A stretch of DNA of 64,000 bases, from IMG/VR virus record IMGVR_UViG_3300021958_008605, positions 13,220-77,219 of that record. One strand, 5' to 3'. This DNA comes from a virus. Taxonomy: Duplodnaviria; Caudoviricetes. Below are positions 1 through 35,165 of this stretch, one piece after another; positions within the stretch are counted from its first letter, which is position 1; every line of letters starts with the position of its first letter. The translations under genes and the position numbers were made by a program. Below the pieces are notes generated by a model. That model saw nothing but the letters and a program-made list of their open reading frames with translations, was not told where the DNA came from and ran no database searches.

Positions 1-431
1 TCATCGATTGGTAGTTTATCTGCTGGTACTCTACCGAATATCTCAGATGAGGCACATACATGAACCACTACATCATCTTCACCATGGTCTCTCAATGCCT
101 CTAATAAATTTGCAGTACCCAAAATGTTTGTTTGTAAGGTTTCAAGTGGTGCACTAAATGAAGTTTTTGGATATGATTGAGCCGCTAAGTGAAAAACATA
201 ATCTGCTTCTGATTGTTCTACTGCTTGAACTACTGATGGTAAGTCATTTAAATCTCCATTGATTAAAAACAACCTATCTTTCTTGTTGATTCTATCAAAG
301 TGATGTTCTAAGTTATCCAATCTATCATTCCATCTGATAAATCCATAGATATTCCAAGTTGTATTCTCAATAAGGTAATCTACCAAATGAGAACCAACCA
401 TTCCTGTTATTCCTGTTATTAATACATTCAT
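1..431 (-). CDS. gmd: GDP-mannose 4,6-dehydratase (5' part only; runs off the window edge)
   Basis: Not in the ORF track; translated by hand from ATG at 431: MNVLITGITGMVGSHLVDYL...DYVFHLAAQSYPKTSF...TNILGTANLLEAL...CASSEIFG. This has the Rossmann GxxGxxG and the Gmd-typical HLAAQS and ASSE motifs. ATGA overlap with the upstream stop. Confidence 0.85.
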   Translation of the reverse strand, partial: MNVLITGITGMVGSHLVDYLIENTTWNIYGFIRWNDRLDNLEHHFDRINKKDRLFLINGDLNDLPSVVQAVEQSEADYVFHLAAQSYPKTSFSAPLETLQTNILGTANLLEALRDHGEDDVVVHVCASSEIFGRVPADKLPID

Positions 432-1384
432 TTGTTTTGTTTAAACCATTCAATTGTTTCTCTAATACCATCTTCAAATGAATAACTTGGTTGAAATCCA
501 AGATTATTTATCTTTTCGGTACTAACCATTCTAAAAGGTATCGTAGTTGGTTTAGAATTATCCCAAACTATTTCTGGTGTAAGACCAGATACTTTTTGAA
601 TCGTGTTTACTATATCTCCAACCGTAATTGGTGCTCCATATCCAACATTATAAGGTTCCATTGGGTTACCATGTTCGATTATTGTTAATGCACCCTTAAT
701 TACATCCTTAACATACAAGAAATCTCTTACAACATCAGGTGAACCCCAAGCAGTGAATGGATTTTCACCACCTAACATACGATTAATGATTGCAGGTATC
801 ACATGACAAGTTTTTACATCAAAATTATCATTAGGTCCAAAGATTGCCGAACCTCTACCCAAGAATATCTTCAAATCAGAGAAGTTTGAGGTGTGTTCCA
901 TCAACTTTTCTCTATATCTTCTCATCCAACCATAACCGAAGTACGCAATGTAGGGTTCTTCTTCCCAAAATTCATCTTCCTTCACAGGATATCGTCTGTC
1001 AGGATAGCCTGTTGATGAATTAAGGTCAAAAAATGAATCTACCTCGTTTGTAACACACGCTTCTAGTACATTTCCAAGTAAAGTAATGTTTCCTAGTGAA
1101 CCTTGTATATCAGTTCGTACTGAACCAGGGTGTAAAACATGACCAGCACAATGGATTACTAAATCCGCTCCACTTGTGAGTTTGATTGCATCATCAAGGT
1201 TATTTAAATCGATGTTTTCTAGTATTGTTATATCTTTTTGTATCTCTTCACTAACTTGTAGTGGTGAATTGTAGGTGTGAGTAGTAATATTCGCACCTAA
1301 CTTGTTTAATTCTGTGATGAAGTGTGTTGCAAGGAAACCTGCACCTCCTGTAACTACAACTTCTTTGTTATTAAAGTAACTCAT
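428..1384 (-). CDS. GDP-L-fucose synthase-like extended SDR epimerase/reductase
   Basis: VTGGAGFLA Rossmann motif, SSTGYP, CHVIPAIINRM, WGSPDVVRDFLYVKD (Fcl-like). The YxxxK position reads YGWMR. Adjacent to gmd. Confidence 0.7.
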   Translation of the reverse strand: MSYFNNKEVVVTGGAGFLATHFITELNKLGANITTHTYNSPLQVSEEIQKDITILENIDLNNLDDAIKLTSGADLVIHCAGHVLHPGSVRTDIQGSLGNITLLGNVLEACVTNEVDSFFDLNSSTGYPDRRYPVKEDEFWEEEPYIAYFGYGWMRRYREKLMEHTSNFSDLKIFLGRGSAIFGPNDNFDVKTCHVIPAIINRMLGGENPFTAWGSPDVVRDFLYVKDVIKGALTIIEHGNPMEPYNVGYGAPITVGDIVNTIQKVSGLTPEIVWDNSKPTTIPFRMVSTEKINNLGFQPSYSFEDGIRETIEWFKQNK

Positions 1385-2102
1385 TTAGTATTTTTTTTAA
1401 TTTATTTGGTTCTATTTTTGGTTGATGTAATCCTAATGGATTTTCATAGTAAATATCTTCAACTGAAAACTTCTTTGCAACATCATAAGGTGCAATATCT
1501 TCATCTTTAAGGTATTTACAAAAATATATATCTTCCATAGTGATTTCTTCATCACTAAATTGGTTTGTAATCTCTAACATTCTTGATTTCTTACGAAAAG
1601 ATAACCCACCATTACCAACAATCTTTCCTTCTCTATATCTAATCCATGGTGCACCTATATAATTGTAAGAAATAAACTCATCTATACCAAATCTTCTTAG
1701 AATTGTATCTGTTTGAAAGATTAAAACATTCTCTGTTGGTATTGTTTCCCAAAATTTAGTGGTTTTAAACATATTATTGTACAAAATACCACTTAAATCA
1801 TCAATTTCTAAGTTTTCTAACTGAATAGTGTTCCAATTTTTAGTAAAATCTTGTACAAACTCTTTATTTTTGTTGCCATGATAGATTTTTAACCCCCATT
1901 TTACATCAGAACCACTTTCGTTTAGATAATACATTACATTTTTACATATAATTTCTAAATCTTCATGTTTTCTAGGTTCTACAATGATTGCAGTGTATTG
2001 GGTATCCTTAAAAATAGATGGGGTGTAATCAGAAAACTTGTTTTTTATGTTTTGTAACCCCTGATTCCAAACATCAATATGTTCTTTTGTCTGTTTTGGC
2101 AT
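1371..2102 (-). CDS. DUF5672-like, GT-A-like putative glycosyltransferase
   Basis: LIFQTDTIL...YNYIGAPW...VGNGGLSFRK...EDIYFC...FSVE pattern. Start moved to 2102 (TAATG overlap with the upstream stop). Confidence 0.65.
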   Translation of the reverse strand: MPKQTKEHIDVWNQGLQNIKNKFSDYTPSIFKDTQYTAIIVEPRKHEDLEIICKNVMYYLNESGSDVKWGLKIYHGNKNKEFVQDFTKNWNTIQLENLEIDDLSGILYNNMFKTTKFWETIPTENVLIFQTDTILRRFGIDEFISYNYIGAPWIRYREGKIVGNGGLSFRKKSRMLEITNQFSDEEITMEDIYFCKYLKDEDIAPYDVAKKFSVEDIYYENPLGLHQPKIEPNKLKKILNELL

Positions 2103-35113: not shown

Positions 35114-35133
35114 ATAGATACTCGAATTACTAC

Positions 35134-35165
35134 TATAAATATCTTTAAATAATATTTATAAATAT
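35134..35165. promoter_or_regulatory. Divergent promoter region: ATATTTATA at 35134-35142 (minus) and perfect palindrome ATATTTATAAATAT at 35152-35165
   Basis: Lies between the divergent starts of the giant gene (35113, minus) and the RHH gene (35190, plus). The palindrome presents the motif on both strands. Confidence 0.6.

Follow-up and report, generated by a model that had tools for sequence, protein, structure and literature searches.

In the genome of a large uncultured myophage whose host probably belongs to the Flavobacteria, a giant fibre-like gene is followed on the same strand by a glycan block of at least 39.7 kb and at least 40 genes, which is best read, tentatively, as a fibre-linked, all-soluble glycan factory that would glycosylate a putative acceptor on the virion. 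The window, i.e. the whole stretch of 64,000 nt analysed here, is part of a 77-kb contig that represents ~23% of the genome (CheckV estimate), and genes absent from the contig thus say nothing about the whole genome. All long ORFs in the window are on the minus strand, as are all the features described below unless stated otherwise. An earlier note on this DNA had described a 26-kb cluster with more than 20 sugar genes directly behind the giant gene. Such a cluster is present, on the same strand, and it exceeds that size, since the block extends 13.2 kb past base 1 of the window, where it reaches the left end of the contig.

Organisation of the block and its promoter-like motifs

The giant gene (26522..35113) lies behind the baseplate module and encodes a 2863-aa, Ser/Thr/Gly-rich, fibre-like virion protein with a conserved N-terminal part of ~1150 aa and a divergent C-terminal part (58-64% and 33% identical, respectively, to the homologues of the related genomes G001 and G002). 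Similarity to virion structural proteins of Cellulophaga phages is seen at residues 1858-1975, a 725-aa ORF of the distant relative LR756508 resembles the N-terminus, and the position of the gene is that of the tail fibre and tail spike genes of phage immuto. These observations lend indirect support to the previous designation as a tail fibre, although profile searches revealed no match to a tail-fibre family. A Hint/intein-like module at residues ~2447-2583 (27365..27775) resembles PF14890 (35.0 bits, with a cut-off of 35.8), PHROG 16259 and the Pho RadA intein (E 0.0076). The two small ORFs that follow the giant gene (96 and 99 aa; 25933..26504) had been taken for chaperones, a role that is putative at best, as their matches are to Phage_tail_APC, below the cut-off (E 0.0048), and to phrog_20196, which has no known function. 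The 96-aa ORF contains four [ST]GS motifs, compared with 0.3 expected.

The first gene of the block begins 17 nt downstream of the giant gene. Of the 40 gene junctions from 35113, the start of the giant gene, to contig position 1000, ~31 are overlaps, a large number of them 4 nt (ATGA) or 1 nt long, and the widest gap is 34 nt, confirming the tight packing noted before. A scan for hairpins followed by a T-run identified no strong terminator from 26504 to contig position 1000, in agreement with the earlier note for the part of this stretch that lies in the window. Strong elements of this type on the coding strand are located at 59300, 58859 and 41887 (all intergenic), at 31133, which falls within the giant gene, and at contig position 754.

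A motif scan of the window placed ATATTTATA at exactly 35134, 24708 and 6198, the three sites given in the earlier note. The motif occurs 12 times in the window (5.7 +/- 2.3 in shuffles), with 11 copies on the coding strand, ten of which fall in intergenic DNA (~2% of the window), at distances of 12-32 nt 5' of start codons. Two coding-strand copies and one on the other strand (35134..35165) occupy the 230-nt gap 5' of the giant gene, and the copy at the head of the enzyme cluster (24708..24716) is kept at this junction in ~12 IMG/VR relatives. In G001, where 19 of the 25 copies are found within intergenic DNA (8% of the sequence), a matching motif is positioned 21 nt 5' of the giant homologue. 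All eight full-motif copies of immuto, a cultured Flavobacterium phage, are at most 68 nt 5' of annotated genes, which include the terminase, one tail spike and two fibre-like genes; the portal gene is preceded by a copy of the TATTTATA core, and a 13-gene glycan cluster is also preceded by the ATATTTATA motif. Judged from sequence, ATATTTATA is a genuine phage promoter-like element, and the earlier view that the cluster is placed under a motif common to morphogenesis genes is supported by its immuto targets. It differs from the late promoter of T4, TATAAATA: read in gene orientation, its core TATTTATA is the reverse complement of that octamer.

A different promoter, of Bacteroidota type (TTTG-N20-TAnnTTTG), is located 5' of the primase/SbcCD operon (39464-39495) and also 5' of the gene at 62539-63126, in agreement with the separate host-type promoter previously proposed for primase and sbcCD. 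The block had been regarded as having no such promoter. This is consistent with ATATTTATA at its three sites, but one look-alike, with a 13-mer in common with the primase promoter, lies within the GT2 gene (23132..23163); it is not kept in the 14 relatives compared. From the genes that the motif precedes, transcription of the block would be timed with morphogenesis.

Enzymes encoded by the block and their conservation

The block encodes 11-12 glycosyltransferases, comprising one GT4-like GT-B enzyme, one GT2, three GT7-LamG proteins, six enzymes from a phage GT-B family and, perhaps, a DUF5672 protein. The first enzyme behind the fibre genes is a 399-aa glycosyltransferase (24724..25923) in which an EX7E-like motif and an N-terminal Gly-rich loop are present. 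For its AF2 model (pLDDT 75) the best Foldseek matches are PimA, BshA, WaaG and MshA, with T4 AGT and BGT at ranks 19-34. A GT-B fold is thus predicted for this protein, while the GT4 family assigned previously is retained as GT4-like. Its placement near PF11440 clusters (language-model Atlas score 0.96) found no backing from the Pfam model, which gave no match, and the fold matches are generic GT-B. The homologue in LR756508 is 30% identical and adjoins the fibre homologue there too. Downstream are a methyltransferase of the Methyltransf_24 family (23916-24695) and, next, a GT2-type glycosyltransferase (23086-23928), both 55-85% identical in relatives. They are followed by a region (17589..23085) that contains three GT7 (beta-1,4-galactosyltransferase-like) paralogues, a 136-aa nucleotidyltransferase similar to rfaE domain II (19034-19444), and two small ORFs of 185 and 81 aa.

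The three GT7 paralogues score 60-83 bits against Glyco_transf_7N/7C (cut-offs 23-27) and also match Laminin_G_3. Both the GT2 and the GT7 genes reported earlier are upheld. In the alignment the catalytic motifs are intact (FNRG, DxD, FGG, WGWG.EDDD, His, DGL..L.Y), a set which we take to correspond to the motifs of B4GALT1, and a LamG/ConA-like domain of ~220-300 aa is placed between the EDDD and L.H motifs of each protein. The 7N/7C domains and catalytic motifs are shared with animal beta-1,4-galactosyltransferases (CAZy GT7), whereas the phage paralogues carry the LamG insert, have no signal anchor and are encoded by phages and some bacteria. Searches revealed 2401 homologues in metagenomes and none among 50,697 phage records. 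The six paralogues of the phage family adopt a GT-B fold in models. GT11, listed in the earlier note, was not found in the block. Of the GT10 claim a predicted GT-B fold remains: Glyco_transf_10 was not matched by Pfam or PDB sequence search of the block proteins, and the candidate (Atlas score 0.79) presents a tie between H. pylori FucT (Z 10.9) and TarM (Z 11.2) at the level of fold.

A tailoring set (8389..17592) includes a B12 radical SAM C-methyltransferase of the KedN5 family, a pair of radical SAM enzymes with twitch domains, a DegT-like aminotransferase that is short, and four ORFs without assigned function. It is followed by a set of sugar-nucleotide enzymes and transferases (1..8419), among them a 734-aa SDR+GT-B fusion, a 442-aa GT-B paralogue, an NDP-sugar dehydrogenase, a GDSL esterase, a GalE-like SDR, the DUF5672 protein and an Fcl-like SDR, with ATATTTATA at 6198; a GMD-like dehydratase is split by the window edge at base 1. 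The block continues towards the left end of the contig (L001; contig 1-13650) with four further GT-B paralogues, RmlC-like and HldE-kinase-like proteins, SDRs and split TPP E1-like enzymes. The genes earlier named Gmd/Fcl and Ugd are accordingly present as GMD-like, Fcl-like and NDP-sugar dehydrogenase genes, but GDP-fucose and UDP-uronate, then given as established, are plausible products only, because no sugar-nucleotide enzyme of the block reaches an NCBIfam equivalog cut-off. An outlying tailoring gene, for a Sulfotransfer_2 sulfotransferase (39907-40488), is found within the structural module in a unit (39907..40712) that consists of ATATTTATA (40704-40712), a 60-aa ORF with a good ribosome-binding site and then the sulfotransferase. 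A NodU/CmcH-type carbamoyltransferase (59787..61505; phrog_1601, E 5.9e-114) is encoded upstream of the baseplate genes as the final gene in a unit under a host-type promoter at ~63155, a location that counts against virion glycosylation.

The order fibre, GT-B, methyltransferase, GT2, three GT7-LamG, nucleotidyltransferase and radical SAMs is observed in 13-18 IMG/VR contigs. The head cassette is 55-95% identical among relatives, and the downstream cassettes are mosaic, being present or absent across L002-L018. Synteny had been proposed as a check, and at least 13 related contigs have the cluster behind the fibre gene, as here. In LR756508, a GT-B homologue and a GT32-like gene are located directly before the homologue of the fibre N-terminus; as read from gene order, the linkage between fibre and glycosyltransferases persists there with other transferase families. 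The nearest relatives of the baseplate are immuto, Mel-JY01 and LR756508, and the 15 baseplate matches listed include no Pelagibacter or cyanophage records. The glycan cluster of immuto does not adjoin its fibres, which counts against the virion reading. Neither Mel-JY01 nor immuto has the GT7-LamG genes or the 399-aa GT-B, other transferases being present.

Candidate acceptors of the glycan

The mechanism that we infer, in sugar identities, expression timing and, above all, acceptor, begins with phage-specific promoters of the morphogenesis class, which would drive the block. During infection its enzymes would produce, in the host cytoplasm, a number of unusual activated sugars (6-deoxy, heptose-type, uronic, amino, C-methylated and branched sugars are the candidates), from which the 11-12 soluble glycosyltransferases would build an oligosaccharide. 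Methyl, sulfate, carbamoyl and acyl groups would then be added or taken off, and the glycan would be transferred, with no need for export, to a soluble acceptor, most likely the phage's own fibre and baseplate proteins ahead of assembly and lysis. The conserved head cassette may provide the common core of the glycan and the mosaic downstream cassettes its differences between strains.

A hydropathy scan of the ~40 block proteins identified no membrane segments, with one borderline window in a TPP E1-like enzyme, and these proteins include no candidate for a lipid carrier, flippase, polymerase, exporter, priming phosphoglycosyltransferase, ligase or ABC permease. The block thus lacks the polytopic membrane proteins of Wzx/Wzy- or ABC-type clusters, which bacterial GT7-LamG loci do have: two bacterial MAG contigs (L045 and L052) encode full-length GT7-LamG proteins beside proteins with 3-6 membrane segments, in settings that resemble surface-polysaccharide loci. 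Given these neighbours, the LamG domain provides no evidence for a protein acceptor. The tripeptide [S/T]GS is found 56 times in the virion proteins, against 14.4 expected (3.9-fold), and twice in all other proteins, against 5.2 expected. The excess is equally strong in the virion proteins of Mel-JY01 (44 versus 6.8; 6.4-fold) and immuto (22 versus 5.7; 3.8-fold), which lack the GT7-LamG and 399-aa GT-B genes, and so the motif may be structural. Decoration of the virion, as proposed in the earlier note, is consistent with the packing of the block, with the class of the promoter-like motif, with synteny, with the lack of membrane and export candidates among the ~40 proteins and with the lack of a known hydroxymethyl-pyrimidine source in the sequences searched. 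The [S/T]GS excess in the virion proteins counts for this reading, and its occurrence in Mel-JY01 and immuto counts against it.

Transferases acting on undecaprenyl- or other lipid-linked intermediates are often soluble or peripheral, and the missing membrane proteins are therefore compatible with a host carrier and export. This favours an explanation that we regard as rather unlikely, though worth serious attention, whereby phage sugars are added to lipid-linked O-antigen, capsule or protein-O-glycan intermediates of the host at the inner membrane face and host flippase, polymerase and ligase finish the product, for instance to block superinfection or to prevent re-adsorption of progeny to lysing cells. 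Bacterial GT7-LamG homologues adjoin proteins with several membrane segments, pelagimyophage and cyanomyophage islands of like content have been interpreted as O-chain modification (PMC7029224), and the 22 wall-related genes of S-SCSM2R were given the same interpretation (PMC12801897). However, none of the ~40 proteins is a priming phosphoglycosyltransferase, flippase, polymerase, ligase or ABC permease, serotype conversion by phages as known takes one to three genes rather than 40, the promoter belongs with those of morphogenesis genes, though exclusion would be most useful early, and the location behind the fibre gene is strictly conserved. The same linkage and structural-class promoter would be left unexplained if the block made a free oligosaccharide, glycolipid, or aminoglycoside- or nucleoside-like metabolite, off the virion, as a signal, compatible solute, inhibitor of competitors or decoy. 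The solubility of all the proteins and the resemblance of the KedN5-family B12 and twitch radical SAMs, DegT-like enzyme, split TPP E1-like branching enzymes and carbamoyltransferase to natural-product tailoring agree with a free product, but it is improbable, with no PKS, NRPS, cyclitol synthase or other scaffold enzyme, no exporter, and 11-12 transferases that suggest a polymer or long oligosaccharide.

Hypermodification of DNA, in which an oligosaccharide on hydroxymethylated phage bases would evade restriction and CRISPR, deserves very little credence. Phage transferases do add mono- to trisaccharides to 5hmC, and their gene clusters can adjoin structural genes (Pyle et al., bioRxiv 10.1101/2023.12.21.572611); moreover, the primase-SbcCD operon lies immediately upstream of the block, the 399-aa protein falls close to T4 AGT clusters in the language-model search (0.96), and T4 AGT and BGT occur among the fold matches. 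Those matches are nonetheless generic GT-B, with lipid and small-molecule transferases ranking first, and Pfam AGT has no match in the 77-kb contig (G000; ~23% of the genome), G001, G002 or LR756508. These sequences, including the whole 484 kb of LR756508, yielded neither Tet_JBP nor a C5 DNA methylase, nor any known kind of gene that could supply hydroxymethyl-pyrimidine for DNA glycosylation, and G001 has a canonical thymidylate synthase with the dUMP-type PFNIAS motif. Twelve transferases and ~25 sugar-tailoring genes are also far beyond known DNA glycans.

An extension of virion glycosylation, offered as speculation and with slim chances of being correct, is that the giant fibre, and perhaps the baseplate, is coated with a strain-variable oligosaccharide, sulfated, carbamoylated and containing deoxy and branched sugars, that would act as an adhesin code, mimicking algal or bacterial polysaccharides and being captured by the SusD-like proteins with which host Flavobacteria bind and take up glycans. 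The phage would then be retargeted by swaps of sugar cassettes and not by mutation of the fibre tip. We know of no phage for which such a principle of receptor recognition has been described.

Relation to known glycan islands and virion glycosylation systems

The role of the "LPS-like" gene sets of marine myophages has been a question from the first cyanomyophage genomes onwards, and as a matter of routine they are assigned to modification of the host surface. The block is an extreme case, with at least 40 all-soluble genes that take up a large share of the contig and a regulatory and syntenic context that points to the particle. If the virion is the target, phage self-glycosylation, a trait that takes a few genes in actinobacteriophages, would also be a major investment by abundant aquatic phages. 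This would matter for host range, for the stability of particles, for grazing and for the chemistry of dissolved organic matter in the sea. A cultured test system is provided by vB_FspM_immuto, which combines homologous baseplate proteins rich in [S/T]GS, the motif at morphogenesis genes and the 13-gene sugar cluster.

Fibre-linked glycan islands are already published for pelagimyophages and cyanomyophages (PMC7029224), whose "host recognition clusters" (HRC) comprise fibres, glycosyltransferases, rfaE, UDP-glucose dehydrogenase and radical SAM cassettes, with a mean size of 44.6 kb in pelagimyophages (Zaragoza-Solas et al. 2020, PMC7029224). The block is likewise a large hypervariable island (~35-45 kb) in the structural region of a marine myophage, which abuts a fibre-like gene, is rich in transferases and sugar-nucleotide enzymes, includes rfaE-like genes, genes for NDP-sugar dehydrogenase and exchangeable radical SAM cassettes, and varies between relatives, here with a conserved head and a mosaic tail (18 relatives). 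It differs in belonging to a lineage nearest immuto, Mel-JY01 and LR756508, and in its GT7-LamG and private GT-B families, compared with mainly GT8 in HRC. HRC have VrlC and gp14 as their flanks, in genomes of Tevenvirinae type, whereas here the lineage is another and the left flank is cut off by the end of the contig. Many glycosyltransferases and NDP-sugar epimerases are also carried by the marine myophages P-SSM2, S-SCSM1 and S-SCSM2R (PMC12801897), the last with 13 transferases among 22 cell-wall-related genes, possibly the maximum for a marine phage (PMC12801897). In comparison with these large cyanomyophages, the block has a similar number of transferases and ~2x the glycan genes, in one uninterrupted stretch behind the fibre; some cyanophage sets carry export-related genes (PgaA), and no exporter candidate is among the ~40 proteins here.

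Virus-encoded glycosylation of virions has precedents in mycobacteriophages (Freeman 2023, as cited in PMC12619734 and PMC12801897) and in Megavirinae fibrils and the chlorovirus capsid (PMC10117803, PMC9614988). In the block, too, transferases adjoin structural genes and have their promoter-like motif. Mycobacteriophage transferases encoded beside structural genes reportedly glycosylate virion proteins in the cytoplasm with no export machinery, and by analogy the mechanism would be the same as that proposed for the block. The mycobacteriophage cassettes consist of few genes, use host sugar nucleotides, place glycans on the C-termini of capsid and tail-tube subunits and belong to actinobacteriophages, in contrast to at least 40 genes, own sugar-nucleotide pathways, a presumed giant-fibre target and a Gram-negative host here. 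Glycosylation clusters of Megavirinae and chloroviruses are reported to hold ~9-12 genes. As in the block, these viruses encode full pathways for rare, bacterial-like sugars together with their own transferases, in clade-specific clusters, and decorate fibrils without host secretory machinery. They are, however, giant viruses of eukaryotes with experimentally characterised glycans, whereas the system described here belongs to a tailed phage and occupies a larger cluster.

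Gene content and organisation of the sugar block

The 64-kb window corresponds to bases 13220-77219 of a linear viral contig of 77,219 bp, which lacks a terminal repeat and has a completeness of 23% as estimated by CheckV. G+C content is ~0.30 throughout the window with no compositional break, and every long ORF lies on the minus strand. The right half encodes a myophage baseplate, including a gp6-like wedge protein (53467-55488, -) and a gp25/53-like protein (55492-55923, -), whose nearest relatives belong to Microcystis phage Mel-JY01 (43%), the 484-kb uncultured LR756508 (40%) and Flavobacterium phage vB_FspM_immuto (39%; hereafter immuto). 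The baseplate module is followed on its 3' side by a 1823-aa protein, three smaller Ser/Thr-rich proteins, a sulfotransferase and a SegE-type homing endonuclease, and then by primase, a fused SbcCD, a 2863-aa protein (26522-35113, -) and the sugar block. Bacteroidota-type promoters, a near-identical GT7 fragment in a Flavobacteriaceae MAG bin (L044) and the kinship with immuto, whose own host is Flavobacterium sp. LMO8, together suggest a host among the Flavobacteria.

The virion proteins at 40716-43140 and 43842-51208 (-) have short modules in common: the 401-aa and 376-aa proteins agree at 40% of their last 40 residues, and the 631-aa and 1823-aa proteins share a 35-aa stretch at 63% identity. 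The 401-aa protein has four tandem paralogues in Mel-JY01. The GIY-YIG endonuclease of SegE type (39483-39956, -) is located between the sulfotransferase gene, whose ORF it overlaps by 50 nt, and the primase promoter. SbcD and SbcC form a single 1052-aa ORF in the region 35344-39443 (-), overlapping the primase gene by 4 nt, while the homologous region of LR756508 encodes nuclease and ATPase as separate ORFs.

Annotation of the block through Pfam, NCBIfam and two structure models gave family or fold support for ~29 of the 40 ORFs, among which 11-12 are transferases; all genes described here are on the minus strand. The first in transcription order encodes a 399-aa GT-B transferase (model pLDDT 75), with PimA, BshA and WaaG as top fold matches and T4 AGT/BGT at ranks 19-34 only. 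It is followed by a Methyltransf_24 methyltransferase and a GT2, then by three GT7 paralogues with an inserted LamG domain (GT7-LamG) and intact catalytic motifs, a small nucleotidyltransferase lying within the GT7 region. The block further comprises two twitch-domain radical SAM enzymes and a KedN5-family B12 radical SAM C-methyltransferase, seven SDR dehydratase/epimerase/reductase genes (GMD-like, Fcl-like and GalE-like), an NDP-sugar dehydrogenase, an RmlC-like epimerase, an HldE-kinase-like protein, a split TPP E1-like pair, a GDSL esterase, a DUF5672 protein and a short DegT-like aminotransferase (12104-12802). A six-member paralogous family has a modelled GT-B fold, with Z of ~11 both to TarM and to the H. 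pylori alpha-1,3-fucosyltransferase. Membrane-like segments are absent from all proteins of the block. Outside it, the same strand carries two more tailoring genes, namely the sulfotransferase, preceded by its own copy of the promoter-like motif ATATTTATA and then a 60-aa ORF, and a carbamoyltransferase, whose gene closes a unit headed by a host-type promoter.

The DegT-like protein measures 232 aa versus ~370 for its family, and the profile matched in the N-terminal quarter only; the short form is also kept in a relative from IMG/VR (L016) and in immuto gene 98 (39%). This candidate aminotransferase is a stable truncated variant and not a local frameshift.

The earlier note had recognised a glycan cluster here, and the observation stands in enlarged form, as the block runs 13.2 kb past window base 1 to the contig end with genes of like types. 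Two of the family assignments were not supported. Membership of the six paralogues in GT10 was set aside, there being no support at the sequence level and the fucosyltransferase being one of several tied GT-B fold matches; GT11 was dropped, as the 292- and 312-aa paralogue pair gave no Pfam match. No sugar-nucleotide enzyme of the block reached an NCBIfam equivalog cut-off, and the specific products, which for Gmd, Fcl and Ugd had been taken as established, therefore remain candidates. A kinase, nucleotidyltransferase, 4,6-dehydratase, 3,5-epimerase and reductases would presumably fit a 6-deoxy-heptose or fucose-type route, and the TPP pair presumably points to a two-carbon branched sugar.

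The tight same-strand packing previously described was exceeded, with 40 junctions between 35113 and contig position 1000, ~31 of them overlapping and the largest gap being 34 nt. Our coding-strand scan placed strong intrinsic terminators in the structural module at 59300, 58859 and 41887, two of them directly before a ATATTTATA motif, and none within the 39.7 kb of enzyme genes. One more strong terminator-like hairpin, a 6-bp stem of -8.4 kcal/mol with T7 behind it, lies at 31133-31150 (-) inside the 2863-aa gene; no other was placed between 41887 and the region of the contig end. A generic scanner, applied to both strands, reported weak, intragenic candidates numbering 7 versus 4.8 +/- 1.7 in shuffles for 18000-37000 and 11 versus 4.7 +/- 2.0 for 1-18500.

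Conservation of the fibre-proximal gene order

A scan of IMG/VR revealed 18 contigs, the longest of 229 kb, with GT7-LamG at 50-75% identity. At least 13 of the 18 keep the order giant protein, GT-B, methyltransferase, GT2, GT7, GT7, nucleotidyltransferase, GT7, radical SAM, so that the fibre-then-cluster arrangement for which synteny had been proposed as a check is indeed found in related phages; downstream of radical SAM, the relatives display a mosaic of cassettes. The head cassette also occurs on contigs of low and mid GC that had been placed in unrelated MAG bins (L049, L050, L063). GT7-LamG has 2401 homologues in a large protein database, Tara sequences included, and none in 50,697 deposited phage genomes. 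It is absent from LR756508. There, the homologue of the fibre N-terminus comes directly after the GT-B homologue, two ORFs without assignment and a GT32-like transferase, and is followed by a large protein with a cytidylyltransferase-like domain, terminase and portal. Because LR756508 retains the link with GT-B and GT32-like genes, the association between fibre and transferases is older than the particular enzyme set of the window.

A cytidylyl/adenylyltransferase-like domain is part of very large proteins, of 908-1754 aa, encoded in the related contig G001 (125877-131141), where a morphogenesis-type motif precedes the gene, in LR756508 (135866-138613; L020 22141-24888), directly after the fibre N-terminal homologue, and in immuto (107087-109810).

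No tail-fibre family matched the 2863-aa protein, and PDB sequence searches with it and with the 1823-aa protein returned nothing besides a Hint module. Residues 1858-1975 match Cellulophaga phage proteins annotated as virion structural. The first ~1150 residues are 58-64% identical in the related contigs G001 and G002 and the remainder ~33%, with total lengths of 2231 and 1953 aa, respectively, versus 2863 aa; a conserved N-terminus, a divergent C-terminus and length variation are the usual fibre pattern. The equivalent position in immuto is occupied by annotated tail fibre and tail spikes. Identification of the giant protein as a tail fibre is thus indirect. The Hint-like module near its C-terminus (27365-27775, -) has weak but triple support and contains no endonuclease; it may self-cleave a C-terminal assembly domain. 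Similar Hint/intein-like modules are present in large ORFs of relatives, including G001 (49140-49559) and LR756508, in the latter within a 432-aa ORF before the GT-B homologue and as three intein-domain stretches in the portal gene.

A promoter-like motif of morphogenesis genes

The window contains 12 copies of ATATTTATA versus 5.7 expected. Eleven are on the coding strand, and 10 of these fall in intergenic DNA, which makes up ~2% of the window, at distances of 12-32 nt upstream of start codons; placement, more than copy number, is the real signal. In G001 (141 kb), 19 of 25 coding-strand copies lie in the 8% of intergenic DNA. Searches of the partial contigs G001 and G002 did not find Gp23 or Phage_sheath_1 (the Gp23 model matched nowhere, controls included), and PHROG annotation of the genes behind the G001 copies was uninformative; following this capsid and sheath search, the test of motif class rested on immuto, a cultured phage with an annotated genome. 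In the 86 kb covered there, all eight copies are located no more than 68 nt upstream of annotated genes, which include the large terminase, a tail spike and two fibre-like genes, while the portal gene is preceded by the core TATTTATA alone. Because of its placement in the window, G001 and immuto, ATATTTATA is a lineage-wide promoter-like element of morphogenesis genes. The motif is not a T4 late promoter, its core in gene orientation being the reverse complement of TATAAATA, and late timing is inferred from the genes that it precedes. One full copy in immuto precedes a small ORF that opens this phage's own sugar cluster; the proposal that cluster and structural genes have the motif in common is borne out by these copies. 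The immuto cluster itself (MW353176.1 49128-59944; L043 3129-13945), distant from the fibre genes, comprises 13 genes. Two GT-B genes, GT2 genes, an epimerase, a methyltransferase and two WecE-like aminotransferases are among them, as is a gene annotated as 'pilin glycosylation protein'.

The intragenic copy at 19703-19711 (-) is positioned in the second GT7 gene, ~260 nt upstream of the nucleotidyltransferase, and recurs in place in ~7-9 relatives (at 11182 in L002 and 11179 in L015, for example); it may be an internal promoter or merely conserved coding sequence. Two Bacteroidota-type promoters (TTTG-N20-TAnnTTTG) precede the primase gene and gene 62539-63126. A look-alike at 23132-23163, inside the GT2 gene, has a 13-mer in common with the primase promoter. 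It was given little weight because it is not conserved in 14 relatives, and with the generic host-type consensus unenriched (4 versus 2.3 +/- 1.4), an internal promoter of this type was rejected as evidence for early expression.

Candidate acceptors of the sugars

Glycosylation of the virion is the best-supported reading of the block, held tentatively at a little less than an even chance. The late, virion-decorating role put forward in the earlier note is in part sustained, by a promoter class common with morphogenesis genes, a conserved position behind the fibre gene, a complete lack of carrier and export components in the block and a scale far above the needs of serotype conversion; the bacterial context of GT7-LamG and a control on the tripeptide [S/T]GS count against it. 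Remodelling of the host envelope, the published reading of analogous islands (PMC7029224, PMC12801897), is rather unlikely while carrying arguments of its own, since lipid-linked intermediates can serve soluble transferases. Moreover, full-length GT7-LamG occurs in bacterial MAG contigs (L045, from a Spirochaetaceae MAG, 9980-11482; L052, 6516-8006) amid neighbours with 3-6 membrane segments, pairs of proteins with 5-6 such segments flanking the enzymes, which suggests that these are exported polysaccharide loci. Because these homologues sit among membrane proteins, the lectin insert was abandoned as an argument for a protein acceptor. Bacterial MAGs (Acidobacteriota, Chlamydiae, Steroidobacteraceae) widely carry the catalytic N-half by itself.

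In both the giant and the 1823-aa protein, no tripeptide exceeds expectation as strongly as SGS, which stands there in non-repetitive contexts, and [S/T]GS numbers 56 versus 14.4 expected in virion proteins and 2 versus 5.2 in all others. Positions are retained above chance in orthologues, moderately so against G001 (7/16 and 9/13). Mel-JY01 and immuto, which lack GT7-LamG and the 399-aa GT-B and have transferase clusters of their own, show an equal excess in their baseplate and fibre modules (44 versus 6.8 and 22 versus 5.7, respectively). A sequon co-varying with the GT7 or GT-B genes is thus not supported, and [S/T]GS may form a structural turn or act as a sequon for different enzymes.

DNA is a highly improbable acceptor: a language-model lead for the 399-aa protein is its sole support, whereas an AGT profile match, Tet_JBP and C5 methylase are all absent from four records and the thymidylate synthase of G001 is canonical. 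Assignment of this protein as a T4 AGT-type DNA glucosyltransferase was not supported, as the Atlas lead had no Pfam-model match and the fold is generic GT-B. Some product other than a virion, envelope or DNA glycan is improbable. With immuto as a cultured relative, the question of the acceptor is open to bench testing.

Genomically, the block is of the same kind as the 'host recognition cluster' that pelagimyophages and cyanomyophages carry (PMC7029224), from which it differs in phage lineage, in transferase families and in having no membrane components. Jumbo phages with Bacteroidota hosts and four core glycosyltransferase groups have been described as 'moraphages' (PMC12619734). Under virion glycosylation, the block would resemble in mechanism both the glycosylation of mycobacteriophage virions and the gene clusters with which Megavirinae glycosylate their fibrils (PMC10117803, PMC9614988).
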